Shown here: positions 10,123-46,759 of the stretch, piece by piece
How positions within the stretch are numbered: the stretch's first letter is position 1
How the letters are laid out: each line of letters opens with the position of its first letter
Source of the DNA: Patescibacteria group bacterium
GTDB lineage: Bacteria > Patescibacteriota > Minisyncoccia > Moranbacterales > UBA2206
Assembly: GCA_030837625.1 (NCBI GenBank)
Contig: JAUPKF010000005.1
Location: 1 to 60,138, forward strand
Reading direction: 5' to 3'
Length of the DNA: 60,138 nucleotides
Notes under the pieces: generated by a model
What the model saw: the letters and a program-made list of their open reading frames with translations, nothing else
The model's database searches: none
Told to the model about the DNA's origin: nothing
Program-made: the position numbers and the translations under genes

Positions 10123-12162
10123 TCAGATTATTGATATTGGATCTACATCAATGATCCATCCTTGTCCTAGTTTTTTTAGTTCTGCCGCCAATTTTTCCGG
10201 AATTTTTTCCGTAAATTTAATGATAATTTGTTTCCGGTGGCGTCCGCGAATATTGGGAATGAAAGAATCTTGCGGTTCGCTGGCTCTGGCGTTTTTTATT
10301 TTTTCCAATAGTTCGTAAACACGCCGGGTTTCGGCGGAAACTTTTTTCGGGGAATAGTCTTGAAAAACCAGCTTGACTATCCGGCCGAAAGGAGGATAGG
10401 CAAAAGCTTTCCTTTCTGCGATTTCGTTTTCAAAAAAAGCCTCGAAATTCCTGTCGGACAGCCATTGAAAAAATTTCAGTTCCGGCTGATATGTTTGCAA
10501 AACCGCCATTCCTGGAAACTTTGCTCCCGGACGGCCCGTTCTGCCCGCGGCTTGGACTACCATTTGAAAAGCCTTTTCGCGGGTTTGAAAATCAGGAAAG
10601 GAAAGCAGGTTGTCCGTGTCTATTATACCAACCAAAGCCAGGCGGGGCAAATCCCAGCCCTTGGTGGCTATTTGCGTGCCAACGAGGATGTCGGTTTCTC
10701 CGCGCGTCATACTGTCATATGTTTTTGTATGTTGGCTTTTGGTTTTTATCGTTTGGCTATCGATTCTGGCCACGCGCGCGGCGGGAAAAAGATCGCGGAT
10801 TTCCCTTTCCACTTTTTGCGTTCCCAGTCCCACGTTTTTGAAAATTATCCCCTTGCATTTCGCGCATTCCGGAGTGATGGAAGTTTGGTAGGCGCAATGG
10901 ACGCATCGGTAACTTCCGCCGCTATCATAGACCAACGCCCGCTCGCATTTTGGACACTTCAAAACCGTTTTGCAGGATTCGCAGACGGAAAAACTGCTCA
11001 TGCCCTGGCGATTAATAAATAGGAGAATTTGTTGTTTATACTTCAAAGCGTATTCTATTTCGGATTTGAGTCTCTTGGATATGCAACTGTAATTTTTTTG
11101 CCAGCGTTCTTTTCGCATGTCAACCAGAGTAGTAGTAGGTAGAAAGTAGGAAGTATTAAGCGTTTTCTCTGGGTTGCTTTCTACTTTATACCTACTACTT
11201 GCTACTTCTAAATTCAACGGCGGCAGTCTGACTAACTGCATTTTTTTATTTAAAGCCTTGAAATAGCTCTCGATACTCGGTGTCGCTGTTCCTCTTACAA
11301 CCGGACAATTATGCAGTTCTCCCAGTTTTTCCGCCACGGTTCTGGCATCGTAGCGCGGATTCATATCCCATTGCTTGTAGGACATATCCTGCTCTTCGTC
11401 TATCACAATCAAGCCCAGTTTTCTAAAAGGCGCGAATACCGCCATCCGAGTCCCGATCACTATCTTAGCCTCACCTGAGCGAATTTTGAGCCAGTCGGAA
11501 TAATATCGTCCCTTGGAAACGTTGCTGGAAAGCACCGCTATCTCGCCAGAGCCAAAATACGCCCCATAGCGCTCTATGGCTTGAGGAGTCAAAGTTTGCT
11601 CTGGAACCAATATCAAAAACTGCAAATCTTTGTCTTTTTCGCGTAATTTCAGAATAGAATGAATATACACTTCGGTTTTCCCTGAACCGCTTGGGCCATG
11701 TAGAAGAAATTTTGAATTTTGAATTTTGAATTTTGAAATACTCCCCACGGCTTCTTTTTGTTCTTTTGTGAGAACAATACCCTTGTAGTTAATGTTATGT
11801 GCTATATGCTCTATGCTGCGTGATTTTACTCTTTTTGGCACGAAATTCTTCATCACTACTCCCAGCGGAGAAATGTAATATTCGGAAATAAACTTCGCCA
11901 GTTTAATTTGTTTGTCAGTCAAGAAGCTTTCTTCTAGCACTTTATCAATATTTTTTAGCTCAATGTTGCCCAATCTGGGGAAATCTTTCTTGCTTTCCAA
12001 AACTACGCCTTCGACTTTCCGGCGAAAAAGCGGTGCGCTCACCAAAGTTCCGGCCGGAATCTCCGTTTCCGACAAATACGAAAACGACTGATTGCGGGTC
12101 AGGGGGATTTTAGTCAATGGTACGATGTCGAGGATGTGTTTGCTTTTCTTCTTGGATTTCAT
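10123..12162 (-). CDS. priA: primosomal protein N' (helicase)
   Basis: GPSGSGKTEVY, IVIDEE, SYKQ, RYDAR, four CxxC pairs, GLGTQK, VGTQIATKG. Confidence 0.96.
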   Translation of the reverse strand: MKSKKKSKHILDIVPLTKIPLTRNQSFSYLSETEIPAGTLVSAPLFRRKVEGVVLESKKDFPRLGNIELKNIDKVLEESFLTDKQIKLAKFISEYYISPLGVVMKNFVPKRVKSRSIEHIAHNINYKGIVLTKEQKEAVGSISKFKIQNSKFLLHGPSGSGKTEVYIHSILKLREKDKDLQFLILVPEQTLTPQAIERYGAYFGSGEIAVLSSNVSKGRYYSDWLKIRSGEAKIVIGTRMAVFAPFRKLGLIVIDEEQDMSYKQWDMNPRYDARTVAEKLGELHNCPVVRGTATPSIESYFKALNKKMQLVRLPPLNLEVASSRYKVESNPEKTLNTSYFLPTTTLVDMRKERWQKNYSCISKRLKSEIEYALKYKQQILLFINRQGMSSFSVCESCKTVLKCPKCERALVYDSGGSYRCVHCAYQTSITPECAKCKGIIFKNVGLGTQKVEREIRDLFPAARVARIDSQTIKTKSQHTKTYDSMTRGETDILVGTQIATKGWDLPRLALVGIIDTDNLLSFPDFQTREKAFQMVVQAAGRTGRPGAKFPGMAVLQTYQPELKFFQWLSDRNFEAFFENEIAERKAFAYPPFGRIVKLVFQDYSPKKVSAETRRVYELLEKIKNARASEPQDSFIPNIRGRHRKQIIIKFTEKIPEKLAAELKKLGQGWIIDVDPISII

Positions 12163-12208
12163 TATCCTTATTATACCAAGATGCAAACCCAAACAAAAGG
12201 AGTTCTTT

Positions 12209-12529
12209 ATGAAAACAAAGCGAGTGAAGGCGGTTGTTGCGCATTTTCTGGCAATTGGTTGTCTTTTTGTTGGCTACTTTTTGGCCTTCGACGAGTACAA
12301 GGCAATCCTATGGTGCTCTGTTTATGCTTTTGCTGTTATCGCAGGGAACCTTTTTCAAAGATGGATTGCGAAATCGAGCCTGGAGCCAAAAGAAAATTCG
12401 AAATATTCAATCGGTCCGTGTGTCGGAGCGGATTGGCCGGTTGAGCTTATAAAGGAAATCCAGCACAACCAGGAAGAAGGGAGTCATCGAATGTGTGAGG
12501 GCACATCTTCTGGGAGATTGCAGGGATAA
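12209..12529 (+). CDS. hypothetical 2-TM protein (106 aa)
   Basis: SD AAGGAG before ATG 12209; two hydrophobic segments. Confidence 0.6.
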   Translation: MKTKRVKAVVAHFLAIGCLFVGYFLAFDEYKAILWCSVYAFAVIAGNLFQRWIAKSSLEPKENSKYSIGPCVGADWPVELIKEIQHNQEEGSHRMCEGTSSGRLQG

Positions 12530-12578
12530 TAGTGGCCGCCATAGGCTGGTCTTTATTTGAGAGGAAAGGAGTGCGATA

Positions 12579-12791
12579 ATGATTCTGGACACAGAAACAA
12601 GAAATGAGCTGATTGGAAGACTAAGGAAAAGGGGACTTTCAAAAAAAAGAGCCAGCCGAATTGTAAACTCTTTCCATAAGGCCGCAATGAAAGGCTTGCA
12701 AGAAGGAAAAGAATTGCCCTTTTTTAATCAAGATGGCTTTTTCTTCAGAAAAGTAAACAACCAGATAGAGATTTACAGAGATATAGAGTGA
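12579..12791 (+). CDS. 70-aa protein resembling the HU/IHF helical core without the DNA-binding arm
   Basis: SD GAAAGGAG; ELI..L...GLSKK.A..IV..F......L..G pattern. Confidence 0.55.
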   Translation: MILDTETRNELIGRLRKRGLSKKRASRIVNSFHKAAMKGLQEGKELPFFNQDGFFFRKVNNQIEIYRDIE

Positions 12792-12804
12792 ATATGATCT
12801 AGGG

Positions 12805-12843
12805 CGGCATTTGCTGGAAACACAGCATCTGCCGTTTTCTTTT
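12805..12843 (+). terminator. putative intrinsic terminator
   Basis: CGGCA..TGCTG/CAGCA..TGCCG stem plus T-rich tail. Confidence 0.5.
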
Positions 12844-12876
12844 GCAATTATGATTAATATAAAGTAAGATTTAAGT

Positions 12877-13419
12877 ATGAAACGTAAAATTTTCATCAGT
12901 ATTAACATTCCCGAGAGAGACAGGAAAAGACTCACGAAAGCTACCGAAAAATGGCAGAATCTTCCGGTTAAGTGGATAAAAGAGACCAATTTGCATGTCA
13001 CCTTGGCGTTTTTGGGGTTTGTGGATGAGAATATACTTGCAGAAATTTGCGAGCGGGTCGGCGAAGTTTCAAAGAATCGCGATAATTTCGACATAGCTTT
13101 TGAAGAAATCGGACTTTTTCCGGCGGAAAACGAACCGCGTATGATCGCGCTGGTCGGGGAACCAAACGAAGATTTGAAAAACTTGGTAAACGACCTAGAA
13201 AAAATTCTCGGGCTTTCCGGCGCTCCCAAGAAAATTTTCCGCCCTCACATCACCCTTGGCCGCATTCGAAAGCTGAAATGGGAAACTCTGGCAAAAAAAC
13301 CGGAAATATCAGGAAAATACCCGCTGAATATCTCCGTCGAATCCGTTGACATCATGGCAAGCGATTTCGCTGATGGCGAAAGCGAGTATGTCGTGATTGA
13401 GTCTTGCTCGCTAAAATAA
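12877..13419 (+). CDS. thpR: RNA 2',3'-cyclic phosphodiesterase (2H family)
   Basis: two HxT motifs (LHVTL, PHITLGR); KRKIFISI start. Confidence 0.9.
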   Translation: MKRKIFISINIPERDRKRLTKATEKWQNLPVKWIKETNLHVTLAFLGFVDENILAEICERVGEVSKNRDNFDIAFEEIGLFPAENEPRMIALVGEPNEDLKNLVNDLEKILGLSGAPKKIFRPHITLGRIRKLKWETLAKKPEISGKYPLNISVESVDIMASDFADGESEYVVIESCSLK

Positions 13420-13552: not shown

Positions 13553-13960
13553 ATGGGCAAAGTAAAATATCACGAAATCGATTCCAATGAGCGATATAAG
13601 ATAATAGGAAATTTTCTAAATATCGTTTCCGGACTAAATTCCAAGAAAGAGGCGTTGGATTTTTTTCTCGGACTCTTGACCGCCAGCGAGTCGCTTATGC
13701 TCGCGAGAAGAATTCAAATTGCTCAAATGCTTTTAGATGGTTTGAGTTATGACGATATTCGAGGTAAAGTAAAAACCAGCAATCAGACGATAACCAAAAC
13801 AGATCGCTGGCTGCACAGTGAGGACAAGGAATATAATAAATGGCTTGAGAAGTGTTTGAATAAAAAAAGCGGCGAAAAAAAATCCCGACGCCGGTTTCAA
13901 AAGTCTTCTCGAGAAATATCCGGCGCACAGACTGTTGAAAAATCTAATCAGCTGATATAA
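13553..13960 (+). CDS. TrpR-related YerC/YecD family protein (3' end possibly frameshifted)
   Basis: LLTASESLMLARRIQIAQMLLDGLSYDDI...S.QTITK HTH. Confidence 0.82.
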   Translation: MGKVKYHEIDSNERYKIIGNFLNIVSGLNSKKEALDFFLGLLTASESLMLARRIQIAQMLLDGLSYDDIRGKVKTSNQTITKTDRWLHSEDKEYNKWLEKCLNKKSGEKKSRRRFQKSSREISGAQTVEKSNQLI

Positions 13961-13966
13961 TGCGTT

Positions 13967-13990
13967 TCCATATAACCACATATGGACATA
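13967..13990. repeat. 24-bp inverted copy of 13470-13493
   Basis: TCCATATAACCACATATGGACATA is the exact reverse complement of 13470-13493. Confidence 0.85.
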
Positions 13991-14800
13991 TCGAAAGAAT
14001 ATTGCAGAGAGAATGTAGAGAATATTTTAGGAGTACGGATTGATAATTTGAGTGAAGATGATATTTTACTTAGATTGGAAGGTTTTTTAGCTGAATCGAA
14101 ATTCCACCAAATCGCTACTGTTAATCCGGAATTTATTCTGGAAGCGCAGAAAAATCCGGAATTCAAAAAAATACTAAACAATTGTGATTTAAATGTGGCG
14201 GACGGGTTCGGGATAAAGTGCGCTTTTTGGCGGTATGGGAAAAATCTGAAATGTCGGATGACGGGAGCGGATTTGATGCTGGAGCTCTTGCGGTTGGCGG
14301 AAAAAAATAATCTGAAAGTATTTCTTGCGGCGCGTGCGGACGGCTTAAGCACTTGGCAAGAAACCAAAGAGGCGATTTTGAAAGTTTGCCCGAATTTACA
14401 GATAGATGGCGCTGATATAGAATGTCATTCCCACGCCGCGCCTGCCGGCAGGCAGGTAGGCGGGAATCCAGTCTCGGGACTTGCAGTTTCTGCACTAGAT
14501 TCCCGCCTACGCGGGAATGACAAATATATACTATTTGTCAACTTCGGCGCTCCTTCACCGGAGCTCTTTATCAATTCCGTAAAAAATGATAGTATAAGGC
14601 TAGCGATGGGAGTCGGCGGGTCTTTCGATTTTTTGACTGGAAAAGTTTGGCGCGCGCCAAACTTTATGCGGTCTTTAGGACTGGAATGGCTTTGGCGGCT
14701 GATTCAGCCGCAACCGTGGAAATTCAAAAAAGAACGCCTCAAAAGAATTTTCCGGGCGGTGGTAATTTTTCCGGTAAAAGTAATTTTAAACAGGAATTGA
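13982..14800 (+). CDS. WecB/TagA/CpsF family glycosyltransferase
   Basis: IATVNPEF, VADGFG, RMTGADL, MGVGGSFDF, RAP..M..LGLEWLWRL. Confidence 0.92.
   Translation: MDISKEYCRENVENILGVRIDNLSEDDILLRLEGFLAESKFHQIATVNPEFILEAQKNPEFKKILNNCDLNVADGFGIKCAFWRYGKNLKCRMTGADLMLELLRLAEKNNLKVFLAARADGLSTWQETKEAILKVCPNLQIDGADIECHSHAAPAGRQVGGNPVSGLAVSALDSRLRGNDKYILFVNFGAPSPELFINSVKNDSIRLAMGVGGSFDFLTGKVWRAPNFMRSLGLEWLWRLIQPQPWKFKKERLKRIFRAVVIFPVKVILNRN
14423..14522. mobile_element. palindromic element (dRS3-like subfamily) in frame inside the WecB/TagA gene
   Basis: TGTCATTCCC...GGGAATGACA; translates CHSH...DSRLRGND; homologue at 44531. Confidence 0.85.
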
Positions 14801-14801
14801 T

Positions 14802-15260
14802 ATGGGTATTGTTCTTGCGGGGATAATTTTATTAATAATTTTAATCATAACAATCGCTATGAATCCAAAAGCCAAATTAATTAAAACAATCTATCTCTAT
14901 CTGGTCGCGGTATTGAGCCTTCTTTTTGTGGCGATCGGCGCGGGAAGGATTTTAAACACCGGACTCAAATATTATATTTTTCCGGAAGCGGAAAAGAAAA
15001 GTTATTTCGAATGCAACCAACAGCCGCCGATAGCTCCGGTTATTTCCAAAGAAAACGCGACTGCGGATCAGAAAGTTCAAATCGATTCATTGCTGGCGGA
15101 TTATGAAAACTGGAAACAAAACCAATCCGGCGACAATTGTCTTGTGCCCGCCCGCCAGAATAACATCGTCGATGCCCTCACGATGGTAATAATCGCCCTT
15201 CCAATATTGTTGTTTCATTGGAAATTGATAAGAAGAGAGAAGGGAGAAAAAGATGAATAA
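14802..15260 (+). CDS. DUF5671-like membrane protein (start may be 14859)
   Basis: IKTIYLYLVAVLSLL...PILLFHWKLI. Confidence 0.7.
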   Translation: MGIVLAGIILLIILIITIAMNPKAKLIKTIYLYLVAVLSLLFVAIGAGRILNTGLKYYIFPEAEKKSYFECNQQPPIAPVISKENATADQKVQIDSLLADYENWKQNQSGDNCLVPARQNNIVDALTMVIIALPILLFHWKLIRREKGEKDE

Positions 15261-16848
15261 AGTTCGCGTCAGGTTCGCACCGTCGCCGACGGGGTTTCTC
15301 CATGTCGGAGGACTTCGTACGGCATTGTATGATTATCTTTACGCCAGAAAAACCGGCGGGGATTTTGTTTTGAAAATCGAGGATACCGACCGCAAACGTT
15401 TTGTGGAAGGGGCAGTGGAGAATTTAATAAAATCGCTGGATTTTTTGGGGCTTGAGAGAGACGAGGGAGTTTTCATGAAAGACGTAGCGTCCGAGTTTGA
15501 AAATGAGAAAATAGTTGATTCGAAAAATTATCCCGGAATTATCGAGGTGGGCGAATATGGCCCGTACATTCAGTCAGAAAAACTAGAAGTTTATAAAAAA
15601 TACGCCGAGCAATTGGTGAAAGACGGACACGCTTATTATTGTTTTTGCGAACCGGAAAGATTGGAAGAAATGAGAAAAGAACAACAAGCGCGAAAGTCGC
15701 CGCCGCTCTACGATCAATACTGTTTGCGAAATGTTACGCCGGAAGAGGTTAATAAGAAACTCAAAGAAAATTGTCTGTATACGATTCGGCTGAAAATTCC
15801 CAAGGATGAAACGATTGAGTTTGAAGATATGGTGCGGGGTAAAGTAAAATTTGATACCAATCTGGTGGACGACCAAGTTCTTTTGAAATCCGACGGTTTT
15901 CCGACATATCATTTAGCGAATGTGGTGGATGACCACGATATGAAAATCACCTATATTATTCGCGGCGAAGAGTGGCTTTCCAGCGCGCCGAAACACTTGC
16001 TTCTATACCGCTATTTCGGCTGGGAAGCGCCGCGATTCGCGCATTTGCCGTTATTATTAAATACCGATCGCAGTAAATTATCCAAGCGCCAGGGCGATGT
16101 GGCAGTGGAAGATTACATCAAGAAAGGATATTTAAAAGAAGCGATTATAAATTTTGTCGCCTTTCTCGGCTGGAATCCGGGGGGAGGGGAAACGCAAGAG
16201 ATTTTTACTTTGGAAGAATTGGCGGACAGGTTTGACTTCGCCCATGTTCACAAAGGCGGAGCGGTGTTTGATTTGAAAAAACTTGATTGGATAAATTCGC
16301 AGTGGATAAAGAGGATATCTTTAGAAGAATTATACTCACGCTCTTTGGAGTTTTGGAAAGAAAAAGAATTTTATAAAGAGTGGATCGCTAGATATGAAAC
16401 ACGAAACATGAAACATGAAGCACAAGAAGCGGAGAATTACATTAAAAAGGTTTTGGAAGTGGAACGTGAACGTTTGCAAAAATTATCCGAGGTAGGGGAG
16501 AGCAACAGATTCTTTTTCGCGGAAAAATTAAATTATGATAAAAAATTATTGAGTTGGAAAGATATGCCGGACGAGGAGCTTCGCCAGTCGCTTGCCAGAT
16601 CCGCCGAAATAATGGAAAATATACCGAAAGGGGACTGGACGCGCGAAAATCTGGAAAAGGAGCTTATGGCCGCTTGCGAAAAATATTATAAAACCCAAGA
16701 CGGAAAGATCAACCGCGGAAGTTTGCTTTGGCCGCTTCGCGCGGCGTTGACTGGCGAACAAAAATCACCCTCGCCGTTTGAAGTGGCCTGGGTGCTTGGC
16801 AAAGAAGAAAGTTTAAAGAGAATAAATAAAGCAACTGAATTGAAATAA
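15253..16848 (+). CDS. gltX: glutamyl-tRNA synthetase
   Basis: RVRFAPSPTG.LHVGG, YYCFC, PTYHLANVVDD, RGEEW, KLSKR. Confidence 0.97.
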   Translation: MNKVRVRFAPSPTGFLHVGGLRTALYDYLYARKTGGDFVLKIEDTDRKRFVEGAVENLIKSLDFLGLERDEGVFMKDVASEFENEKIVDSKNYPGIIEVGEYGPYIQSEKLEVYKKYAEQLVKDGHAYYCFCEPERLEEMRKEQQARKSPPLYDQYCLRNVTPEEVNKKLKENCLYTIRLKIPKDETIEFEDMVRGKVKFDTNLVDDQVLLKSDGFPTYHLANVVDDHDMKITYIIRGEEWLSSAPKHLLLYRYFGWEAPRFAHLPLLLNTDRSKLSKRQGDVAVEDYIKKGYLKEAIINFVAFLGWNPGGGETQEIFTLEELADRFDFAHVHKGGAVFDLKKLDWINSQWIKRISLEELYSRSLEFWKEKEFYKEWIARYETRNMKHEAQEAENYIKKVLEVERERLQKLSEVGESNRFFFAEKLNYDKKLLSWKDMPDEELRQSLARSAEIMENIPKGDWTRENLEKELMAACEKYYKTQDGKINRGSLLWPLRAALTGEQKSPSPFEVAWVLGKEESLKRINKATELK

Positions 16849-16859
16849 ATACGCTATAT

Positions 16860-18086
16860 ATGCGATATAAAAATAACCATAAAATAAAATACATCTTTCT
16901 CGCGATATTTTTGCTGTCGCTTTCTTCTTTCTTCTTTCTTCTTTCTTCTTTTTCAAAAGCCGTTGATTGCGATGATTTTGAAGGCGAATTAAAAGACCAA
17001 TGCAAAGAAAAGGAAAGAAAGGCGAAAGTGTATGAAGATCTGATTAGGCTTAAGGATAAGCAGGAAAACGCCCTGTCTCAACAGATAAAAGCAATCGATC
17101 AGGAACAGCAAAAGAACGAATCCGAACTGACTTTGACCCAAGCGCAGCTGGAAGATATAAACAAAAACATAATCCGTTTGGAAAGCGATATCGCGGAAAA
17201 GGAAGCTTCCATGAAAACCCGAAAAATAGTTTTGTCCGGATTGATGCAAGCTTATTATGAATACGACCAGCAGGGTCTATTGGAAGTGGCGCTGGTGGAA
17301 AAAGATTTTTCCGATATCGTGAACCAGGCGGATTATACCGAGCAGTCCAGTGCCCGAGTAGGAGAAGTTTTGGCAGAAATCCAAAAACTCAAGAATGACC
17401 TAGTGAGAGACAAACAAGTGCTGGATAAGAAGAAGGAAGAAAATGAAAACGCCAAAGACGAGCTGGCGAGAAAGGGACTTAATCTTCAGTACAGCGAAAA
17501 CCAGAAACAAAAACTTTTGGGACAGACTCAAGCGGAAAAAGAAAAATATGAAGAGCTTTTGAAAAGTATCGAGAGTGAAATCGATGAATTGGAAATAGCC
17601 AAGGAAAGCAGCGTCGATTATTCAAAAATTCCTCCAGCCAAGGGTGACTATTTCGATTACCCGGTTTCTTCAATACGAATCACTCAAGCGTACGGCAAAA
17701 CCAGCTTCTCTAAAAACTACGCCTCTGGCCGCCACAACGGGGTGGACTTTGCCGTAAACAAAGCGCCAATATACGCGGCAGGGAACGGCAAAGTTATTGG
17801 CTCCGGCGACAACGGAAAATACGCTTACGGCAATTGGATTGCGATAGACCACGGCGACGGATTAGTAACGCTTTACGGACATCTAAGTTCCAAATCAGTT
17901 TCGAAAGGGGATAGTGTCAAGAGAGGAGGGAAAATTGGTATCAGCGGGAACACCGGTTTCTCCACCGGTCCGCATCTTCACTTTTCCGTTTTCGTTAAAA
18001 GCAGTTACGAAGTGGTTCAGTCCAAGTACGTCAAGGGCTTGATGATCCCGACAGGCGCCAGCGTTAATCCGATGAAATATTTGTAA
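16860..18086 (+). CDS. secreted coiled-coil M23 peptidase (EnvC/murein hydrolase-like)
   Basis: signal peptide, long coiled coil, HNGVDF, YGHL, STGPHLHF. Confidence 0.9.
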   Translation: MRYKNNHKIKYIFLAIFLLSLSSFFFLLSSFSKAVDCDDFEGELKDQCKEKERKAKVYEDLIRLKDKQENALSQQIKAIDQEQQKNESELTLTQAQLEDINKNIIRLESDIAEKEASMKTRKIVLSGLMQAYYEYDQQGLLEVALVEKDFSDIVNQADYTEQSSARVGEVLAEIQKLKNDLVRDKQVLDKKKEENENAKDELARKGLNLQYSENQKQKLLGQTQAEKEKYEELLKSIESEIDELEIAKESSVDYSKIPPAKGDYFDYPVSSIRITQAYGKTSFSKNYASGRHNGVDFAVNKAPIYAAGNGKVIGSGDNGKYAYGNWIAIDHGDGLVTLYGHLSSKSVSKGDSVKRGGKIGISGNTGFSTGPHLHFSVFVKSSYEVVQSKYVKGLMIPTGASVNPMKYL

Positions 18087-18342
18087 GAATATTTTCTTGA
18101 AAAATAATTTAATTGTTCATGAATAAAAGCTGGAGATAGCACAACAAGATAGAGAGTAAGAAATAGTTGAAACAGGCGCCAGATCGGACTTTAGAGATGA
18201 TTTGTATGTGCAAGACGTACTTCTATATATGTTGAAACACTCTTATCAAAACAGCTTAAGTAATGACAGGATGAATATAAGGGTCGCGAAAGTAATAATG
18301 TGCGACGCTCTGCATTTTTCTTTCCTCTATGCCCTCATCAAT

Positions 18343-18374: not shown

Positions 18375-18383
18375 TATCAAAGC

Positions 18384-38754: not shown

Positions 38755-38851
38755 ATAAGTATTATTATGCTTTTTAGCTAGTTGTTTTTTAGTAGATGCA
38801 AAAGAGCTTGAAAAGCTTTTTTTATTTGCCTTTTTGTGCTAGGATATTGTT

Positions 38852-40939
38852 ATGCCAGATAGCATATTAAGTCAGATATTATTTTATATTTCAGCCGCTT
38901 TTGTCCTGTTTTTGCCGGGATATTTTTTGCTTGGAGTAGTTTTTAAGAAGAATAACGCTTTAGAACCGCTGGAAAAATTTATTGTTTCTTTTGGCTTGAG
39001 TATCGTCAGCGTCGATTTTATTTTTTTTCTTTATTCCCGGCTGAATATTCCCATCACGCAAACGTCGGCAATTGTTGGAATCGGAGTTTTTGTTCTGATA
39101 TGCTTTATCCTTGCCGGAGTCTCTCGAAGAGGACTCCGACAAGCCGCCGAGCCGTCGGAGTCCCTTTCAGGAGACTCCGACAAGGAAAGAAGAAGCTCTG
39201 GAACATTGATTCGTATGTCCGGCATCCGTAGCGCCGGTTCACGACGCGATAGCGGAGTGAATAACTTATTTCATTTTTCCAAAAACCAATTCATTCTCAT
39301 CTTGCTCTTGCTATTCTTGACGGTTTTCATTAAAACCGCCTACCTTTCCGGCACGATCGCGCCGACCGCCACCGATATGGGACATCATATGTATTGGGCG
39401 AAATGGCTGGCTCAGAATCATCAACTTCCGACTTATGAAGGAATGCCGGATTTTATCATCGGCGAACATATCATTTTTGGCGTCATAAGTCTGATAAGCG
39501 GCGCCGATTTTTTCTCGGCTTTTCCGGCGATTGTTTTATATCTGATAAATATTTTAAGCATCTTGACTGTCTTTATTTTGGTTTTGCGTATTTTCAAGAA
39601 TAAGACTGTCGCCATTTTATCTTTGTTCTTTTTAGGCGCGCTTTACGCCGTGTCTTCGCCGCAAGCCAAGTTTGTCAGCGGCGGCGTAATCGGAAACGTG
39701 ATGGGAAACTATTTTATGCCCCTGGCTTTTTATTTTTATTATCGAGCGCTTGAGTTCCTGAATGTAGGGGTTCAATTTATTGAACCCGAAAAACCAAAAG
39801 GGCTTGATAAATCAAACCCCTACGGTAAATCGTTATGTGACAGCAGGAAATTCTTATCCCTCGCTATTTTCACCACATTTGGTCTTTTCTACACCCACCA
39901 CTTGACTTCTTTCATCTTTCTTTTTGTTTTATTATTCTTTGTCCCCTTCTTTATTCTGATTAATTTTAAAAACATTAAGGAAATACTCAACCGCGCGCGG
40001 CCTGTCGTATTTTCACCGGCTGTCATCGGCACTTTTGTTTTAGGCTTGGTGTTTTTCTTTTTTATTTTCACGCCCACTTACGTCAATCCGGAAGCGGTGG
40101 ACACGGCGGTCGGCACGGCGGTGAAGTCCACCCGCACCGGGCTTACGCTGGAAAATATAAAGCTCACCGTCGGGGAGCCGCGTTTTGTTTTGGGGTTGAT
40201 AGGATTGCTGTTTCTAGTCTTGACTTATTTATACCCGCGCGAATTCGATAAAGATAGAAAAAATTTAGGATACGCACTGATCGTGTCCTGGTTGGTTACG
40301 CTTTTTATAATGTCGATGAAACCCAACTGGTTGTTTGTCGATATCCCCAGCGCCCGGATCGGAAATTACTTGAGCTATCCCTTGGCGATACTTTCCGCTT
40401 ATGCTTTGTACTGCACTTTTAATTCCAACTCAAAGCTTTTTGGCGAAAAAATTTCTTCCCGCGTTCCGCAAGCGCTCTTTTCCGGCGCGCTTTTGCTTTT
40501 CGTTATTTTTTCCTTCGCTCCTGGACTGGATGATTCGGCCGGCGCTTTCAAAACGCAAAACGCCGGAGAGGAAACCGTCCAGACCTTCTCCGCCTCGAAA
40601 TATCTGGCGGAAAAATCTTCTGTTTCCAATATGCTTCTCAAAGATCATAACTACATCACGGCCGACTCCTGGATAAAATTGTTTTTCATGAGAGAATATA
40701 AGTATCCCCTGTCCCGCGGATATTTCAAGCGCTACGAAGATCCGCTTAACCCTCGCGAGATGTGCACTCTCTGGATGATCGGCAGTCCGGCTTCCGCCGA
40801 TTCCCAAAAATGTTTTTCCGAAACCGGCGTCAATTTCGTGATGGTCAACCCGCGCTACGACAGCGCGCAATTTCAGAAATTGGATGAGTTTGATGAGGTT
40901 TATGTGAATGATGAAATAAATATTTTTTATAGAAAATGA
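38852..40939 (+). CDS. large multi-TM protein, probable GT-C fold, DUF1616-like N-terminus
   Basis: FLPGY.LL...LEKF..SFGLSI; TDMGHH.YW loop; more than 12 TM segments; soluble C-terminal domain. Confidence 0.65.
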   Translation: MPDSILSQILFYISAAFVLFLPGYFLLGVVFKKNNALEPLEKFIVSFGLSIVSVDFIFFLYSRLNIPITQTSAIVGIGVFVLICFILAGVSRRGLRQAAEPSESLSGDSDKERRSSGTLIRMSGIRSAGSRRDSGVNNLFHFSKNQFILILLLLFLTVFIKTAYLSGTIAPTATDMGHHMYWAKWLAQNHQLPTYEGMPDFIIGEHIIFGVISLISGADFFSAFPAIVLYLINILSILTVFILVLRIFKNKTVAILSLFFLGALYAVSSPQAKFVSGGVIGNVMGNYFMPLAFYFYYRALEFLNVGVQFIEPEKPKGLDKSNPYGKSLCDSRKFLSLAIFTTFGLFYTHHLTSFIFLFVLLFFVPFFILINFKNIKEILNRARPVVFSPAVIGTFVLGLVFFFFIFTPTYVNPEAVDTAVGTAVKSTRTGLTLENIKLTVGEPRFVLGLIGLLFLVLTYLYPREFDKDRKNLGYALIVSWLVTLFIMSMKPNWLFVDIPSARIGNYLSYPLAILSAYALYCTFNSNSKLFGEKISSRVPQALFSGALLLFVIFSFAPGLDDSAGAFKTQNAGEETVQTFSASKYLAEKSSVSNMLLKDHNYITADSWIKLFFMREYKYPLSRGYFKRYEDPLNPREMCTLWMIGSPASADSQKCFSETGVNFVMVNPRYDSAQFQKLDEFDEVYVNDEINIFYRK
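39115..39181. repeat. paired GGAGTC...GACTCC hairpins in frame
   Basis: GGAGTCTCTCGAAGAGGACTCC and GTCGGAGTCCCTTTCAGGAGACTCCGAC. Confidence 0.7.
39764..39823. repeat. 60-bp inverted GTAG-REP pair (BIME-like) in frame
   Basis: GTAGGGGTTCAATTTATTGAACCC...GGGCTTGATAAATCAAACCCCTAC. Confidence 0.8.
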
Positions 40940-41298
40940 CAACGGGAGTGCAACAAAGAAATATCATAATTTTTGTAATCGTCCTTTTCCTTGCCAGTTC
41001 CATCTGGCTTTTTTCCGTTGCCGAAAAATACACCGACCCTGACTACCAAAAAAGCTGGTGGGCGGTTTATTTTGCCGATCCAAAAGGCGGCAGTTTGGAT
41101 TTTGTCATTGAAAATCACAGCGACAAAACCGATTTTCATTATGTAATTTTATCCGGTAATCAGAAATTGAAAGAAGATAGTGTAAAAATAGAAAAAGGCT
41201 CCCAAATAGAGCTTGGCTCTACCCAAGCGGATTCGGGAAAAATTACCATCCAAGTTTCAAGTGAAGAAGAGAAAAAGGAAATATACAAGAATTTATGA
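40936..41298 (+). CDS. membrane-anchored beta-rich hypothetical protein
   Basis: N-terminal TM; 4-bp overlaps with both neighbours. Confidence 0.7.
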   Translation: MTTGVQQRNIIIFVIVLFLASSIWLFSVAEKYTDPDYQKSWWAVYFADPKGGSLDFVIENHSDKTDFHYVILSGNQKLKEDSVKIEKGSQIELGSTQADSGKITIQVSSEEEKKEIYKNL

Positions 41299-42419
41299 AA
41301 AAAATACTTTTAGTCACCCGCCCTATCGCTCCGCCTTGGGACGAGGGGTCGAAAAATTTTGCGTACTCGCTGGCTAAAAATTTGCCGGCTGGTTTGGACG
41401 TGAATTTAATGGGAACAAAAGAAAATTTGCCGGAACTGCCTCAAAATGTCCGCCGGCATCCGGTTTACACAACATCAAAAATCGCTGATTTTAATTTGGA
41501 ACAAAAATTAAGAGCGTTGTATTTTCAGTGGAAAACTCGCGGACAGTTTGACATTAATCATTATTTTTTCACTCCTACCAGATTAAATTCGTTCTTGATA
41601 AAAAATTTTTTAAGTTCAAAAAATACCAAAACAGTTCAAACCGTCGCCACGCTGCGCGAAGATTTGTGGTCGGATGAGGATATAAAGAAACTGATGTTTT
41701 CTGATTTAATCATCACCTATTCTGATTATTCCAAAAATAAATTAAACGAGCTCGGATTTCAAAATGCCGAAAGAGTCTATCCGGGAATCGATCTTTCTGA
41801 ATATGCCAACGCCGAGAAAAATGAAAAGCTTCTCAATGAATATAACCTTACGAAGTCCGACTTCGTAATAAATTCTACCGGCGAATACGTCCGCCTGGGC
41901 GCCATTGATGCGGTGATTGATAGTTTCGTTGAAGTCGCCAAAAAAATTCCCGAAGCCAGGTTGTCTTTGGCCGTACGGATCAAAAACGAAAAAGACGCTG
42001 CCAAGAAGGATGAGATAATTAAAAAATTAAAAAAACATAATTTGCTTGATCGCGTAGCGTTTCATGATGACGGAGCGTATCAAATGAAAGACATCTACAG
42101 CCTTTGCGACGTGAGCGTTTTCCCGGTGGAAAATATGCATGGGAAATTCGACGTGCCGCTGGCTGTCATTGAAGCGATGGCTTGCGAAAAACCCGTGATT
42201 CTGTCCGACATTCCAATTCTGCGCGAGTTCGCAAACGAGAAAAATTCTGTTACAATAGAAAAAGGCAATGCAGCGGCTCTGGCGCAAGCAATTCTGGATC
42301 TATACGCCCACCCCGAAAAACGCGCGGAGATCGGCCGCGAAGCCAGAAAGTACGCGAAAGAGAATTTTGATATCAAAAAAGTCGCGGGGATTTACAATGA
42401 TATTTACGAAACACTGTAA
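41295..42419 (+). CDS. GT4 glycosyltransferase
   Basis: PPWDEG, YPGID, VPLAVIEAMACEKPVI. Confidence 0.88.
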   Translation: MKKILLVTRPIAPPWDEGSKNFAYSLAKNLPAGLDVNLMGTKENLPELPQNVRRHPVYTTSKIADFNLEQKLRALYFQWKTRGQFDINHYFFTPTRLNSFLIKNFLSSKNTKTVQTVATLREDLWSDEDIKKLMFSDLIITYSDYSKNKLNELGFQNAERVYPGIDLSEYANAEKNEKLLNEYNLTKSDFVINSTGEYVRLGAIDAVIDSFVEVAKKIPEARLSLAVRIKNEKDAAKKDEIIKKLKKHNLLDRVAFHDDGAYQMKDIYSLCDVSVFPVENMHGKFDVPLAVIEAMACEKPVILSDIPILREFANEKNSVTIEKGNAAALAQAILDLYAHPEKRAEIGREARKYAKENFDIKKVAGIYNDIYETL

Positions 42420-42553
42420 AAAAATTACAAATCACAAATTACAAATCACAAATAAATTCAAAATTCAAATATCGAATTTCCAAATTGGTTTTGAGTTTTG
42501 GAAATTGTAATTTTGGATTTATTTGGAATTTGGTGCTTATAATTTGAGATTTT
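42419..42553. repeat. heptamer hairpin element (opposite orientation to 9957/22842)
   Basis: contains TTATTTGGAATTTGGTGCTT, the reverse complement of AAGCACCAAATTCCAAATAA. Confidence 0.8.
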
Positions 42554-42562
42554 GGACTGTTT

Positions 42563-44065
42563 ATGTCTCAATACAACCTAACAACTTTATCCGATCATAA
42601 GAAAGAACTAAAAACGGACAAAATGAAAGTTCCGGCGGTTTTTTTTATGAGCGATGAGCTACTCCCACAAGACGACACTTTTGCCAAAATGGAAGACGTC
42701 GCTTCCAATGAAAATACCCTCTTTCGCAGTTTGGTCGCTATGCCGGATGTTTGCTCGAAACCCGGCCGGAAAAACGCCTCCGGCACCACGGTTGTTTCGG
42801 AAAACTATATTTTACCCCAAGTTAACGATTCGGATCCGAACTGCGGAATGCGCTTAGTTAGAACTAACTTAACGGAAAAAGATTTGTCTTCGGAAAAAGT
42901 TGACAAATTATTTCAAGAGCTGGTAAAAGTTGTTCCTACTAAAAAATTTGTCGGCACCAGGATTCCTTTTGACGTCGTGGTCGATATTTGCCGCAAAGGA
43001 ACTTCCGCCATAATCGAACATCTCGGAATCAAAACTAAAAAAGAACTTGAGAATACTCAGAATGGCGGAAATTTCTTCTCCAAAGAAATGACACGGCAAG
43101 ATATTTTTGATGTTATCCCCAAACTTTATTTGTTTTTCGCCAAATATCGCCTGGGAATTCTGGGAGCGGCGGGGAATCACTTTTTGGATCTTATGAAAGT
43201 AGGTGAAATTATTGATCCTCAACTGGCTGAAAAATTCGGAGTAAAAAAGGGTCAGTATCTTTTTATGATCCACACCGGATCGGGAATTCTCGGTCAATAC
43301 ACGATGTACACCCATACCGCGAAAAAACGAGAACATTTATCGCAAGCTCTTATGGTAACTCTTGGAAAAATGACCTTCAACTCCCAAAAGAAAGATACCT
43401 ATAAAAAAATGCAAAAAATTATAAAAAGTCATATGTGTGGTGATAATTCTCTTTTAAAATATGCCGCCAAAGGAGCTGACGGAGAATTGTATATGAACGC
43501 CCGGGCGGCCGCTTCGAACTTTGGTACGGCTAATCGCGCCGTCATTACTCATAATATTTCAGAAGCAACAAAAAAGATTATCGGCAAAGACCCGGAAATG
43601 GATTTGATCTACGATATGCCCCATATCTCAATAACTGAGGAAGAGCATTTTGGCAAAAATGTGTTTGTTCATCGAAGTAATACCTCGAGAGCGTATGGTC
43701 CGGGCAAAATGTCCCATCATCCTGTTTACGAAGAAACCGGCGAACCCGTTTTTATTCCATCTTCTATGAGCACCCCGGCCTATCTTTGCGTCGGCACGGA
43801 CAAAAATGAAGAAAGTTTCTACTCCGCCCCGCACGGCACCGGCAAAGGAACCAATCAAAAGGAGAAATACATTTCCACTAAGGAAGAATTGTTCGCCAAA
43901 ATGGAGACCAAGGGCGTACGGCTCTACAATGCCCGATCATCCATCGTGGTCAACCAGGACAGTGCCCGCTACAAAAATATCGATAAAGTTATGGAAGGAG
44001 TCGAAGCCAACGGCATCGCGCATGTCGTGGCGAAAATGGAACCGGTGGCGGTTTTGATGTACTGA
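42563..44065 (+). CDS. rtcB: divergent RtcB-family protein
   Basis: MPD, D-P-NCGMRL.RTNL, GNHF, HTGS, YD.PH, HR...RA, P.SM, HGTG, YKNID.V. Confidence 0.85.
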   Translation: MSQYNLTTLSDHKKELKTDKMKVPAVFFMSDELLPQDDTFAKMEDVASNENTLFRSLVAMPDVCSKPGRKNASGTTVVSENYILPQVNDSDPNCGMRLVRTNLTEKDLSSEKVDKLFQELVKVVPTKKFVGTRIPFDVVVDICRKGTSAIIEHLGIKTKKELENTQNGGNFFSKEMTRQDIFDVIPKLYLFFAKYRLGILGAAGNHFLDLMKVGEIIDPQLAEKFGVKKGQYLFMIHTGSGILGQYTMYTHTAKKREHLSQALMVTLGKMTFNSQKKDTYKKMQKIIKSHMCGDNSLLKYAAKGADGELYMNARAAASNFGTANRAVITHNISEATKKIIGKDPEMDLIYDMPHISITEEEHFGKNVFVHRSNTSRAYGPGKMSHHPVYEETGEPVFIPSSMSTPAYLCVGTDKNEESFYSAPHGTGKGTNQKEKYISTKEELFAKMETKGVRLYNARSSIVVNQDSARYKNIDKVMEGVEANGIAHVVAKMEPVAVLMY

Positions 44066-44069
44066 ATCC

Positions 44070-44151
44070 TTTACTAATTACGAATCAAGTACGAATATAC
44101 TAATCGGAATTCGTACATTCGTATATTAGTAAGAGATTAGTAATTCGTAAA
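44070..44151. repeat. TACGAAT heptamer hairpin between rtcB-like and tmk-like genes
   Basis: TTACTAATTACGAAT...ATTAGTAATTCGTAA arms. Confidence 0.8.
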
Positions 44152-44158
44152 GAATATC

Positions 44159-44833
44159 ATGAAGCTTATCACAATTTCAGGATTAGACGGAAGCGGAAAG
44201 TCGACACAAATAAAGTTATTGCAAGATTATTTGGAGCAAAAAGGTTCCAGAGTTTTTTATTTTCACGCGATCCAATTTGGTTTGGCGAAAAAAATCACTG
44301 ATTTCAGGAATAAATATTGTTTGATATGCAAGCTTTTGGGAAAGTGCAAAGTCTATCAAGAAAAAAGCGTGACACGTGCCAACGCCTGGCAAATATTTTT
44401 GCGGAAATTATTCTTACGGATTGACATTTGGCGGTTTAAGTTGTTACGTAACCAGTTGCGTAACAAAAATTATGATTATATTTTGAGCGATAGATATTTT
44501 CATGACAGCGTGGTGAATATCGAGTATTTATGTCATCCCCGTGAAAACGGGGATCCAGTCTCGGGACTTAAATTTTTTACACTAGATTCCCGCCTGCGCG
44601 GGAATGACATAGAGAAACCCGGTCTGGCCATTTACATCCAAACTTCCCCGGAAACCATTATGCGGCGCGAGCGCGTGCCAGATCAGGGATTGGAATATCT
44701 CAAAAAGAAAAAAGAATTATACGACGCTAAAATTGACGAATGGGGATTGAAAGTTGTGGATGGGAGTAGAGATAAAAATGTTATTTTTGAAGATATTAAA
44801 AATTTGATAAAAAAAGTCGGTTCAGGTCTCTGA
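44159..44833 (+). CDS. thymidylate-kinase-like P-loop kinase
   Basis: ISGLDGSGKSTQ, ILSDRY, VVDG. Confidence 0.8.
   Translation: MKLITISGLDGSGKSTQIKLLQDYLEQKGSRVFYFHAIQFGLAKKITDFRNKYCLICKLLGKCKVYQEKSVTRANAWQIFLRKLFLRIDIWRFKLLRNQLRNKNYDYILSDRYFHDSVVNIEYLCHPRENGDPVSGLKFFTLDSRLRGNDIEKPGLAIYIQTSPETIMRRERVPDQGLEYLKKKKELYDAKIDEWGLKVVDGSRDKNVIFEDIKNLIKKVGSGL
44531..44609. mobile_element. 79-bp dRS3-like palindromic element in frame
   Basis: TGTCATCCCC...GGGAATGACA; translates CHPRENGDP...DSRLRGND. Confidence 0.85.
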
Positions 44834-44907
44834 CCTGAACCGAAAAGGTTCTGAAAGCGGCTTGTTTTTAAGAACTGCGCGGTTCAAGTCTGGAGACTTG
44901 AACCGAC
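44816..44907. repeat. inverted pair of GTCGGTTCA hairpins (BIME-like)
   Basis: GTCGGTTCAGGTCTCTGACCTGAACCGA ... CGGTTCAAGTCTGGAGACTTGAACCGAC. Confidence 0.75.
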
Positions 44908-44912
44908 GCTAG

Positions 44913-45155
44913 TTATTTAAGACCGATTACTAAAGTCCAAGACGGCTTGAATAGCCGTTTCCCGTCTCTTTCCCTTACGATTTCAAATTCTCGTTCGTTC
45001 TCCGTAGTTGAACGTCCAGTTTTTCTCCACACATCGACGCTATGATGGCCACTTATTTTCAGGTCATCGACAAGTATCATCTTATAAAGCCCTGGTTTAT
45101 CAAGGCACGTCCCTGTGTATATCAATTCTTTTACTTCAGTATGAATATGATCCAT
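44913..45155 (-). CDS. 80-aa hypothetical protein antisense to the operon
   Basis: perfect SD AGGAGGTA upstream (+ strand TACCTCCT at 45163-70); fills the intergenic gap. Confidence 0.65.
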   Translation of the reverse strand: MDHIHTEVKELIYTGTCLDKPGLYKMILVDDLKISGHHSVDVWRKTGRSTTENEREFEIVRERDGKRLFKPSWTLVIGLK

Positions 45156-45238
45156 TGTTGCTTACCTCCTTGGAATAAAAAGAACATCAAAAGTTTCGCC
45201 ATTAATATAACATAGTAGTCTAAAATATAGTTCAAATT

Positions 45239-46759
45239 ATGTCAAGTACTCTCGCCAAATCAGCCATACTAGTAACAATTTCCGAAATTGTTTTTAATGT
45301 TACCAGTTTTTTGGTCCACGTGGTCGTGGGGCGGATTTTGGGTCCGGCGGATTACGGCCGTTTTGGATTGGTAGTGACGCTGACCACGATGGTCATTATC
45401 CTTATCGGAAACGGCATTCCGACGGCGATGAGTAAATATCTCAGCGAGATTTTTGAAACCCAGCCGGCGCTGATAAAGGTAATCAAACGCCAGGCTATTA
45501 TTTTGCAAAGCATTCTTATTGGTGCCATAACTCTAATATTTTTCTTTTCCGCGCCGCTTATCGCCAAGATTTTGGGCGATCCGACGCTCACTCCCCTTTT
45601 CCGGCTGTCTACGCTTATCATCCCCGCTTTCGCCGCCGCTTCTTTCTATTTTTCCTACTACACCGGGCTGCACAAATTCGGCGTCCAATCTTTCCTGAAA
45701 ATTTCCCGCTCCCTTTTTCGGGTGATTTTCATAATTTCCTTGGCTTTCTTTTTTCGATTGGAAGGCTCGGTTATGGGCTACATCGCCGCGCCGCTGGCTG
45801 TGTTCTTGCTGGCGGCGGGAATTGATAGGTTTAAAATATCAAAAGAATTACAACCCGCCCCTGTAGGGGCGATTCATGAATCGCCCCTACAGGATGTCGC
45901 GCAATCCTCTTTCGATTGGAAAAAACTAATCTCCTACGCCTGGCAGATAATTGTTTTCTTTTTGGCGTACGAACTTTTGATCAGTATTGATCTATATCTG
46001 GTCAAGGGCATAATTCAAAATGATTATTTGACCGGGGTATATAACGCTTCTTTGACGCTGGGACGCTTTCCCTACTATCTCTTTTACGCCTTAACGGTTA
46101 TTCTTTTGCCGGTCGTTTCCAAAACTACTTCGGAGAATAATCACAAAGATACTCATAAAGTCATTTCCCAGTCGCTCCGCCTGATGCTGGTTTTGCTTTC
46201 CCCCATCGTTGTTTTGATGTCGGTTTATAGCTTGCCGCTTATAAAATTATTTTACGGCCAAAACTTCCTGGAAGCGGCTGTCCCGATGTCAATTTTGGTT
46301 TTCGGTGTCGGATTCCTCACAATTTTCTACGTGATGAGCTTTGTGATGAATGGTGCGGGACACACCAAGATTCCGATGTGGATAGCCACGTTCGGCCTCG
46401 TCGCTAATACTGTTTTGAATTACATTCTTATAAAGCAATACGGCATTGTCGGTTCGGCCATTGCCACCACCGCCGTTTCGTTTCTCATAATGCTCGTTAT
46501 GCTTTATTACATCGGCAAATATTTTGGCGTGTTGGTGGGTTTCAAAAGCCTTACTAAGATCATCTTCGCTTCCGGCGCGATATACGCCGCGTCTCTTTTT
46601 TCCCCGGCTGACAATTACATTTTTATTCTTTGGTCGCTTATCTTTACTCTCGCCTATTTTTCCATCCTCTTTGCTGCGGGAGAAATAAAAAAAGAGGATC
46701 TGATGTTCCTCAAAAAATCCATCTTATCTAAAAGTAAATCAAAGAAGAAAAACCCATAG
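45239..46759 (+). CDS. Wzx-like polysaccharide flippase (MOP superfamily)
   Basis: about 14 TM; RILGPADYG.F, G.YNA...L, N..LI..YGIVGSAIAT. Confidence 0.9.
   Translation: MSSTLAKSAILVTISEIVFNVTSFLVHVVVGRILGPADYGRFGLVVTLTTMVIILIGNGIPTAMSKYLSEIFETQPALIKVIKRQAIILQSILIGAITLIFFFSAPLIAKILGDPTLTPLFRLSTLIIPAFAAASFYFSYYTGLHKFGVQSFLKISRSLFRVIFIISLAFFFRLEGSVMGYIAAPLAVFLLAAGIDRFKISKELQPAPVGAIHESPLQDVAQSSFDWKKLISYAWQIIVFFLAYELLISIDLYLVKGIIQNDYLTGVYNASLTLGRFPYYLFYALTVILLPVVSKTTSENNHKDTHKVISQSLRLMLVLLSPIVVLMSVYSLPLIKLFYGQNFLEAAVPMSILVFGVGFLTIFYVMSFVMNGAGHTKIPMWIATFGLVANTVLNYILIKQYGIVGSAIATTAVSFLIMLVMLYYIGKYFGVLVGFKSLTKIIFASGAIYAASLFSPADNYIFILWSLIFTLAYFSILFAAGEIKKEDLMFLKKSILSKSKSKKKNP
45860..45893. repeat. 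34-bp perfect palindrome, GTAG-type REP, in frame
   Basis: CCTGTAGGGGCGATTCATGAATCGCCCCTACAGG. Confidence 0.85.

Follow-up and report, generated by a model that had tools for sequence, protein, structure and literature searches.

Rickettsia palindromic elements (RPEs), of which RPE-1 to RPE-10 were reportedly described by Ogata et al. in 2000 and 2002, and the heptamer repeats (short tandemly repeated repetitive, or STRR, sequences) and very small dispersed repeats that Mazel in 1990 and Elhai in 2008 are said to have described in cyanobacteria, are among the systems with which the elements considered here may be compared. We analyzed contig JAUPKF010000005.1 as one window, i.e. the whole contig of 60,138 bases, which derives from freshwater metagenomes and belongs to Moranbacteria in the candidate phyla radiation (CPR), and in which short palindromic repeats of several families lie in frame within genes, including those for PriA and IscS. 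It is probable that these palindromes are mobile and insert widely, and that in needed genes only in-frame, stop-free copies located in permissive loops survive and are then translated. Literature searches found no account of such intragenic elements in CPR bacteria, in agreement with the preliminary description of this DNA, which knew of none.

The elements are likened to RPEs by behavior, not by sequence. In both cases several palindromic families lie in frame in unrelated and in essential genes, give extra peptides at permissive surface positions, have intergenic copies and occur in a small host genome; the elements of the window are likewise dispersed palindromes that are read in frame. 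The differences concern the host group (Alphaproteobacteria for the RPEs, CPR here), the families themselves, the short length of many of the present elements (21-34 nt), their heptamer-built palindromes and the plausible involvement, for some families, of a transposase found in relatives. Membership in the RPE sequence families is unlikely.

Repetitive extragenic palindromic (REP) elements, with their REP-associated tyrosine transposase (RAYT), provide a closer known frame than the RPEs. Their signature is that of GTAG-tagged palindromes and of inverted doublets, termed REPINs (Di Nocera et al. 2013, PMC3733652; Bertels and Rainey 2011, PMC3116915). PMC3733652 describes RAYT genes flanked by their REPs, as well as intragenic REPs of the GTAG/CGTC type, which lie in frame in members of several phyla (Opitutus, Rickettsia, Thauera and Xanthomonas), often in genes of replication or repair; two Xanthomonas species differ in the REP that occupies a shared site of recB. 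RPE-1, -4 and -6 are mentioned there, and CPR bacteria are not named in the sections consulted.

Hairpins read in frame in eight genes

Eleven intragenic segments in eight genes fold better, as single-stranded DNA, than 200 dinucleotide shuffles (z from -2.5 to -9.0), and all are read in open frames, as the preliminary description had maintained, with conserved domains on both sides. The hosts of these segments, and of the heptamer tracts considered below, are confirmed by Pfam as PriA, WecG/TagA, GltX, a class-V aminotransferase (IscS/NifS), two family 4 glycosyltransferases (GT4s), Wzy_C (the Wzy/O-antigen ligase), a DUF1616/DUF6541 membrane protein of 695 residues, a thymidylate-kinase-like (tmk-like) protein and a Wzx-type flippase; the contention that essential genes are hit holds for priA and iscS. 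Host proteins were aligned with syntenic orthologues taken from 57 related loci (L numbers below), net length being expressed relative to the orthologue median. The relatives were found via GltX and a GT4; all of them are metagenome genomes assigned to Candidatus Moranbacteria or Parcubacteria, with RIFOXYA12_FULL_44_15 nearest (GltX identity 79%). The eleven segments, and a smaller palindrome nested in one of them, are as follows.

11131-11199, minus strand: priA hairpin of the family D type, with arms of AGTAGAA-like heptamers; peptide including SSRYKVESNPEKTLNTSYFLPTT; z -3.7; +10 residues
14423-14522, plus strand: family E element in WecG/TagA, TGTCAT...ATGACA; peptide CHSHAAPAGRQVGGNPVSGLAVSALDSRLRGND; z -9.0; +19 residues
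14434-14454, plus strand: mini-palindrome of 21 nt within the left loop of the WecG family E element, core CCTGCCGGCAGG; exactly 7 extra codons in the nine-copy E alignment
19470-19530, minus strand: iscS insert b (iscS-b), a small GC hairpin between AAAATTCAAAATTC direct repeats; peptide FKIQNSSPKADQPMAEKFKI; z -2.5; +15 residues
19785-19816, minus strand: iscS insert a (iscS-a), a 32-nt GC-rich hairpin; peptide TLGVSGRQVS; z -5.8; +8 residues
30079-30133, minus strand: element J in the GT4 at 29609-30946, a GTAG...CTAC palindrome with an inner hairpin; peptide VGAVPAALAGRHEPPPPL; z -3.3; spans 21 residues, net +9
31993-32139, minus strand: family B element in Wzy, 147 nt or 49 codons; ends TGTCATCC...GGAATGACA; z -6.6; about +29 residues
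32412-32445, minus strand: family F element in Wzy, a 34-nt perfect palindrome with a GTAG...CTAC core; peptide AVGAIHELLLRL; z -8.4; net +1 residue
39108-39186, plus strand: element G in the 695-residue protein, a 79-nt palindrome within a variable segment of +33 residues; z -7.0
39764-39823, plus strand: element I in the 695-residue protein, two inverted GTAG-tagged hairpins, REPIN-like; peptide VGVQFIEPEKPKGLDKSNPY; z -3.3; +26 residues
44531-44609, plus strand: family E element in the tmk-like kinase, 79 nt; peptide CHPRENGDPVSGLKFFTLDSRLRGND; z -5.1; +14 residues
45860-45893, plus strand: family F element in wzx, a 34-nt perfect palindrome; peptide PVGAIHESPLQ; z -7.9; +9 residues

The weakest of the eleven is iscS-b. 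Net gains run from +8 to +33 residues, the sole exception being the 34-nt palindrome of Wzy; the claim that the inserts add sequence is thus correct for most of them and fails for this one, which takes the place of a host loop. Relative to Escherichia coli PriA (6DCR), the priA hairpin corresponds to 16 extra residues within a poorly conserved stretch of the alignment, and a related copy occupies the same site in L002, L004 and L013. Peptides of seven residues resembling the product of the nested mini-palindrome occur in orthologues (LPAGEAG, LPTGQAG and LPHRQAG).

The window is AT-leaning (GC 0.40-0.48) with a coding density of 86% and no tRNA, and its coding sequence is enriched in palindromy as a whole. 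Perfect stems of at least 10 nt form 17 clusters in coding sequence, compared with 4.4 +/- 2.2 after within-gene codon shuffling (maximum 13 in 200 shuffles), i.e. about four times the expectation; the remaining 24 clusters fall in the noncoding 14%. Ten coding stems were rejected as inserts on inspection (14642-14665, 17746-17794, 20909-20996, 22266-22353, 29970-30039, 33926-33952, 41848-41868, 48197-48259, 50375-50449 and 54761-54844), a count near chance expectation; the motif at 14642-14665 aligns with TagA. Also rejected were a D-like match in Wzy (31954-31986), which codes for a conserved transmembrane helix, and a segment of iscS (19198-19228), which codes for a K-rich helix of normal length. 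Inteins and introns were discarded as the identity of the inserts on grounds of size and the lack of any motif.

Four further tracts, which account for three of the cases claimed in the preliminary description (gltX, the second GT4 and priA), proved to be runs of heptamers or similar repeats and not hairpins.

16394-16427, plus strand: gltX tract of CATGAAA-like heptamers, a single family C arm; z +0.1, no hairpin; +10 residues
33892-33925, minus strand: tract in the second GT4 (32820-34088), AGTAGAA/AGTATAA heptamers; peptide YKVESRKYK; z +0.8, no hairpin; +6 residues
11698-11734, minus strand: priA tract just before Walker A, four AAATTCA heptamers; peptide KFKIQNSKF; not a hairpin; net 0 residues
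11788-11823, minus strand: repeat-like priA tract in a variable linker; z +0.2; net 0 residues; neither palindrome nor insertion

The gltX tract lies in the linker between the catalytic and the anticodon-binding Pfam domains, where L018 has a different element, and the +6-residue tract of the second GT4 is also present in the orthologues of L032 and L045. The pre-Walker A site of PriA holds three to four tandem heptamers, of similar total length, in every orthologue (L001-L019); the unit is lineage-specific (AAATTCA, CTCCACG, AAATTGG, CAATTAC or AAAGCTA), and the intergenic palindromes of genomes with such a tract are likewise built of tandem heptamers.

Repeat families and their known counterparts

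The repeats are of three kinds, namely GTAG...CTAC hairpins of the REP/REPIN type (F, I and J), TGTCAT...ATGACA inverted doublets (E and B) and AT-rich heptamer palindromes (A, C, D and H), beyond which there are small GC-rich mini-hairpins. At least five element types are unrelated in sequence, as had been proposed, and intergenic copies of several families exist, as had also been proposed: three of B and copies of the heptamer families A, C, D and H in the window, those of E being found between genes in related genomes only. The heptamer families fill many spacers. The principal intergenic copies, listed without strand, are given below.

3001-3139: family B, with an 8-nt deletion
20103-20249: family B, 147 nt, upstream of iscS, with stops in all six frames
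58681-58827: family B, 147 nt
9956-10100 (also 7387-7534, 22842-22984 and 42420-42557): family A, AT-rich tandem-heptamer palindromes of about 140 nt
28238-28310 (also 1658-1737): family C, CATGAAA heptamer palindrome, overlapping only the doubtful N-terminal extension of a family 2 glycosyltransferase (GT2) gene
44069-44152 (also 34485-34570 and 3566-3608): family H, ATTCGTA-type heptamer palindrome

The longest open reading frames (ORFs) of two GT2 genes (27435-28265 and 34528-35565) begin within palindromic elements (MFHVSCFML... and MSIREFGYIRRFVSGNL...); the true starts are probably downstream, the overlaps at 28265 and 34528 then being noncoding. A 100-nt intergenic palindrome (34086-34186, z -7.3) lies upstream of the second GT4; a single contig of run X1 skips 34100-34177, which may reflect a presence/absence variant (depth 2, with a 20-nt anchor, and hence weak support).

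The four copies of B, three intergenic and one in Wzy, have long inverted termini and align end to end, with a mean column identity of 76% and sharp TGTCAT/ATGACA ends. Intergenic copies of B, A and C contain stops in five or six frames, whereas the B copy in Wzy is open only in the frame used, which is the pattern expected from selection on insertions. A family E element (79 nt) is a pair of inverted halves, about 29 nt long and each folding into a small hairpin; in the alignment of nine copies, drawn from six genomes, 46 columns are invariant. The terminal inverted repeats of B and E are as expected of miniature inverted-repeat transposable elements (MITEs), and their noncoding core, multiple copies and sharp ends also resemble those of the MITE-like Correia, ERIC and Nezha elements (PMC3184786). 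However, neither target-site duplications nor a parent insertion sequence were found for B and E, and the halves of E, as small hairpins, more resemble a REP doublet.

A search of a set of 5.8 billion proteins with an E peptide gave only four weak hits (P0121-P0124), all spurious small ORFs; an exhaustive search with the 30-residue E peptide gave 23 (P0245-P0267), mostly read-through ORFs over REP arrays in unrelated bacteria, together with one FAD-binding protein with C-terminal REP copies and one false positive. Among these hits, peptides of the E-type unit (CHPRENGDP...DSRLRGND) appear in unrelated bacteria, including a metagenome-assembled genome of Rickettsiaceae. The E-type unit therefore belongs to a superfamily spread across phyla, the search revealing a widely distributed unit and not a catalog of in-frame hosts.

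With respect to REPs, which are imperfect palindromes of about 20-40 nt with GTAG conserved at the 5' end, GTAG-tagged short palindromes are present in F, I and J, and absent from B, E, G, K and the heptamer families; a GTAG in the WecG copy of E was judged incidental, other E copies being without it. The architecture of REPINs, in which a short spacer separates two inverted REPs, is seen in I, whose GTAG hairpins lie on opposite strands (39764-39787 and 39800-39823), and E is alike except for the tag. A scan for GTAG hairpins gave 10 hits in the window, representing about 7 distinct sites since palindromes score on both strands, compared with 3.5 in shuffles; related loci average 7.3 per 60 kb. 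The likeness to REP/REPIN/RAYT systems extends to the single RAYT genes of relatives, which have matching flanking REPs, as described in the following sections. It is limited in that 60 kb contain only 2-3 GTAG elements, the window encodes no RAYT and the GTAG of F lies inside a fully symmetric stem.

The cyanobacterial STRR sequences resemble the heptamer families in being scattered tandem heptamers, and small palindromic units (21-27 nt) nested in repeats, and sometimes in genes, have a parallel in the 21-nt unit of the WecG family E element. Phylum and sequences differ, and here the heptamer arrays form long inverted arms and one priA tract is conserved in position. The coding palindromes of Nematomorpha mitochondria (PMC6649704) are similar in that long inverted repeats lie within protein genes with both arms translated, but they are organellar, perfect and much longer, and do not form dispersed multi-copy families.

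Variable sites in the host proteins

Every element lies at a site of variable length, at which many orthologues are shorter or have a different repeat. At site 1 of IscS, 33 of 120 orthologues have 10-20 extra residues, of many unrelated kinds, over a baseline of 2-5; site 2 is empty in 81 of the 120. The tmk-like site is empty in L030 and the wzx site is shorter in L029, L033, L035 and L036. Over ten gene families, 150 variable segments were compared with controls from the same genes, and the z of folding lies below -2 for 33% of them and below -3 for 25%.

The proposed parallel with RPEs included the addition of surface loops, for which IscS provides structural support. In an AlphaFold2 model based on 120 sequences (mean predicted local distance difference test score, pLDDT, 90.4), insert a is a loop that connects a helix with a strand (residues 94-105) and insert b a loop at residues 192-207; blocks of 10 residues at these positions have pLDDT values of 68 (a) and 60 (b), among the lowest in the model. 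The interdomain position of the gltX tract is in accord with the same idea. The exception is WecG, in which the E peptide stands at the position of a helix in TagA (7MPK), a segment that is swapped for assorted repeat peptides throughout the clade.

The same families recur elsewhere in Moranbacteria. Copies of families E, C, D and H and of the iscS-b element, 78-97% identical, occur in other loci, some of them intergenic and others in frame within other genes; the 61-nt iscS-b element is also present inside gltX of L018 and iscS of L004, and family C peptides occur in PriA, WecG and GltX of L002, L004 and L013. At the WecG site, family E is present in the window, L010, L014 and L016, a family C peptide (VSCFMFHVS) in L002, L004 and L013, CHAELVSASHKILNQVQDD in L012, and an AT-rich heptamer peptide in L001, the sister of the window. 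On a neighbor-joining tree made from 1706 ungapped columns this distribution is patchy, which implies that the sites are hot spots with turnover via repeated insertion, replacement or loss. The preliminary description had proposed the use of orthologues to delimit empty sites and target duplications: shorter or empty orthologues were indeed found, but the same sites often carry other repeats, clean pairs of empty and filled sites are exceptional and no duplications were seen for B or E.

Probable mobilization, alternative explanations and biological meaning

A search of all ORFs of the window and related loci with E. coli RayT (phmmer) returned a single ORF of 184 residues, located in L037 (5435-5986, minus strand) between the Wzy and GT4 orthologues. 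It matches Y1_Tnp, and also REP_Tyr_transpos at 61 bits, which is below the curated cut-off of 80, and it has 425 relatives, several of them labeled as Moranbacteria. Six such RAYT-like genes were checked on DNA (L037, and L060, L062, L063, L066 and L067, in each of which the gene runs from 10001 to about 10570 on the plus strand). Four of the six (L062, L063, L066 and L067) are flanked by matching GTAG REPs, i.e. GTAGAGACG...CGTCTCTAC hairpins. In all six, the ORF itself also contains an in-frame GTAG hairpin, directly following the HUH strand, and a REP-like peptide is present at this position in 58 of 58 aligned RAYT proteins, being placed by the model of P0010 in a loop with pLDDT below 50; no description of a hairpin inside the RAYT ORF was found in the RAYT survey literature examined. 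These sequences indicate that RAYT-REP systems exist in the clade, and we infer that one is present in this particular genome. In L062, genes for bAvd and a reverse transcriptase (19379-20579) lie about 9 kb from the RAYT gene, a pairing that suggests a diversity-generating retroelement.

In the account that we favor, the elements would spread within and between related genomes; for the GTAG type, the mobile form is most probably a single-stranded hairpin acted on by a RAYT (HUH/Y1) transposase, the gene for which would lie elsewhere in the genome. Most copies would come to rest between genes. A copy in a needed gene would persist only if its net length is divisible by three, no stop interrupts the frame used and the site is a permissive loop or linker, with purifying selection removing other copies from such genes. 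Surviving copies would be translated as extra surface peptides. Actual transposition, the enzyme responsible for each family, translation of the inserts and their selective neutrality are presumed in this account.

Several results weigh against the account. The mobilizers suggested in the preliminary description were found only in close relatives, as RAYT genes with flanking REPs, and neither a RAYT nor any other transposase is encoded in the window, which is the whole contig. Target-site duplications are absent from the flanks of the four B and nine E copies. For elements G, J and K, as for the iscS-a hairpin, the window and related loci contain no second copy, and the family membership of G, J and K is unproven. 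The family F palindrome of Wzy overlays a loop that is 10 residues long in six of six orthologues, and so replaces a host loop of equal length instead of lengthening it; J in the GT4 also replaces host residues in part, rather than purely adding to them. No empty-site allele of an intragenic element was detected at strain level in four samples at 90% identity or more. In the metatranscriptomes of the same study there were no reads of this organism. Finally, sister lineages may differ in the family found at a given site while distant lineages share one, which is not predicted by simple random insertion.

Particular loops of conserved Moranbacteria proteins might be long-lived landing pads that hairpin repeats actively target, e.g. 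through recognition of an existing hairpin by a RAYT-type enzyme, such that families would replace each other at the same codon and the transposase gene itself would be part of the cycle. We consider this possibility tentative and on balance rather unlikely. Were it true, intragenic repeats would constitute a structured, self-renewing layer of variation in CPR proteins, and not random survivors.

It is decidedly unlikely that the hairpins are instead signals selected at fixed places in genes, acting in RNA stability or processing, in translational pausing at domain boundaries or as DNA sites bound by proteins. Such a role would agree with the presence of a hairpin at the same positions in many orthologues despite differing sequence families, with the 80-89% identity of family E among genomes whose housekeeping proteins are only 55-70% identical, and with the priA heptamer tract, the position and length of which are conserved in all orthologues. 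However, each site is short or empty in many orthologues, the sites are loops and linkers, at which any insertion is best tolerated, and covariation in E is nearly nil (1 of 26 pairs). Furthermore, no intragenic element in the 1-20 kb scanned has the terminator-like combination of a GC stem and T tail, and a scan of the whole window gave no Rfam match at the gathering score.

We give still less credence to an origin of the palindromes and heptamer tracts in place by replication error, i.e. by template switching that copies an arm or by heptamer slippage, with no mobility. The tracts of gltX, the second GT4 and priA are plain tandem heptamers, the single-copy status of G, J and K is what such errors would give, and little net length is gained where F in Wzy and J in the GT4 lie over host residues. 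For the heptamer tracts and single-copy palindromes an origin in place is plausible. For B and E it is impossible. Several copies with defined ends exist of each of B, E, F, D and iscS-b, spread over unrelated genes and genomes; a 147-nt element that occurs at four places with 76-80% identity cannot have arisen independently in each; and REP-flanked RAYT genes exist in the clade.

The possibility of assembly artefact, which the preliminary description had named as a finding that would refute its claim, was addressed using Logan contigs from independent freshwater runs, four for 29000-47000 and two for 13900-20300 (priA being outside the covered ranges). These contigs span the elements of WecG, gltX, iscS-a, GT4-J, Wzy-B and 695aa-I with 0-1 differences, and the inserts can therefore not be put down to a single assembly. 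Depth rises at several repeats, reaching 37-152x in the 44025-44625 bin, which contains the tmk E and family H copies, as against about 5-8x nearby. Erroneous assembly at repeats, faulty gene calling or pseudogene decay is barely credible as an explanation and is largely excluded: Logan contigs do break at several repeats, with strand-flip joints centered on palindromes, and some N-terminal overlaps are probably mis-called starts (the GT2s at 28265 and 34528), but contigs from separate runs cross six elements, frames are open with conserved domains on either side of each insert, and inserts of the same kind are present in relatives from other studies.

Some other features of the window merit record. 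The 196-residue ORF at 12639-13229 (minus strand) looks spurious, Logan annotation placing a LigT-like 2'-5' RNA ligase at 12877-13419 (plus strand). Cumulative GC skew peaks near 16-18 kb and then falls, which could mark a replication landmark or follow gene orientation. A two-gene cassette, coding for a membrane protein of 103 residues and a prepilin-like protein of about 215 residues, is duplicated in tandem (36749-37705 and 37785-38728), the identity of the copies being 90% at the start and declining to 77%. Adjoining the polysaccharide cluster are five large paralogous membrane proteins, in groups of three (48139-53293, minus strand) and two (54392-58201, plus strand), which resemble PMT_2/GT-C glycosyltransferases and among which DNA similarity is scattered.

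The phenomenon described here is not new in kind, given the RPEs and the intragenic REPs described in 2013. What goes beyond known systems is the number of families for a genome of this small size, the nested 21-nt units, the heptamer-built palindromes together with the position-conserved priA tract, the turnover of families at the same site and the hairpin inside RAYT genes. The results extend the RAYT-REP system, mostly studied in Proteobacteria, to the CPR. There are also practical consequences, in that the inserts inflate protein lengths, create spurious 'hypothetical' peptides and break short-read assemblies at repeats, and can lead homology searches and structure prediction astray in a group that is known from metagenomes only. 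The data provide a natural catalog of insertion-tolerant loops in PriA, IscS, TagA-like proteins, Wzy, Wzx and others. CPR genomes are tiny and usually called streamlined; the density of palindromes within essential genes shows that their proteins are still being shaped by selfish or semi-domesticated DNA.

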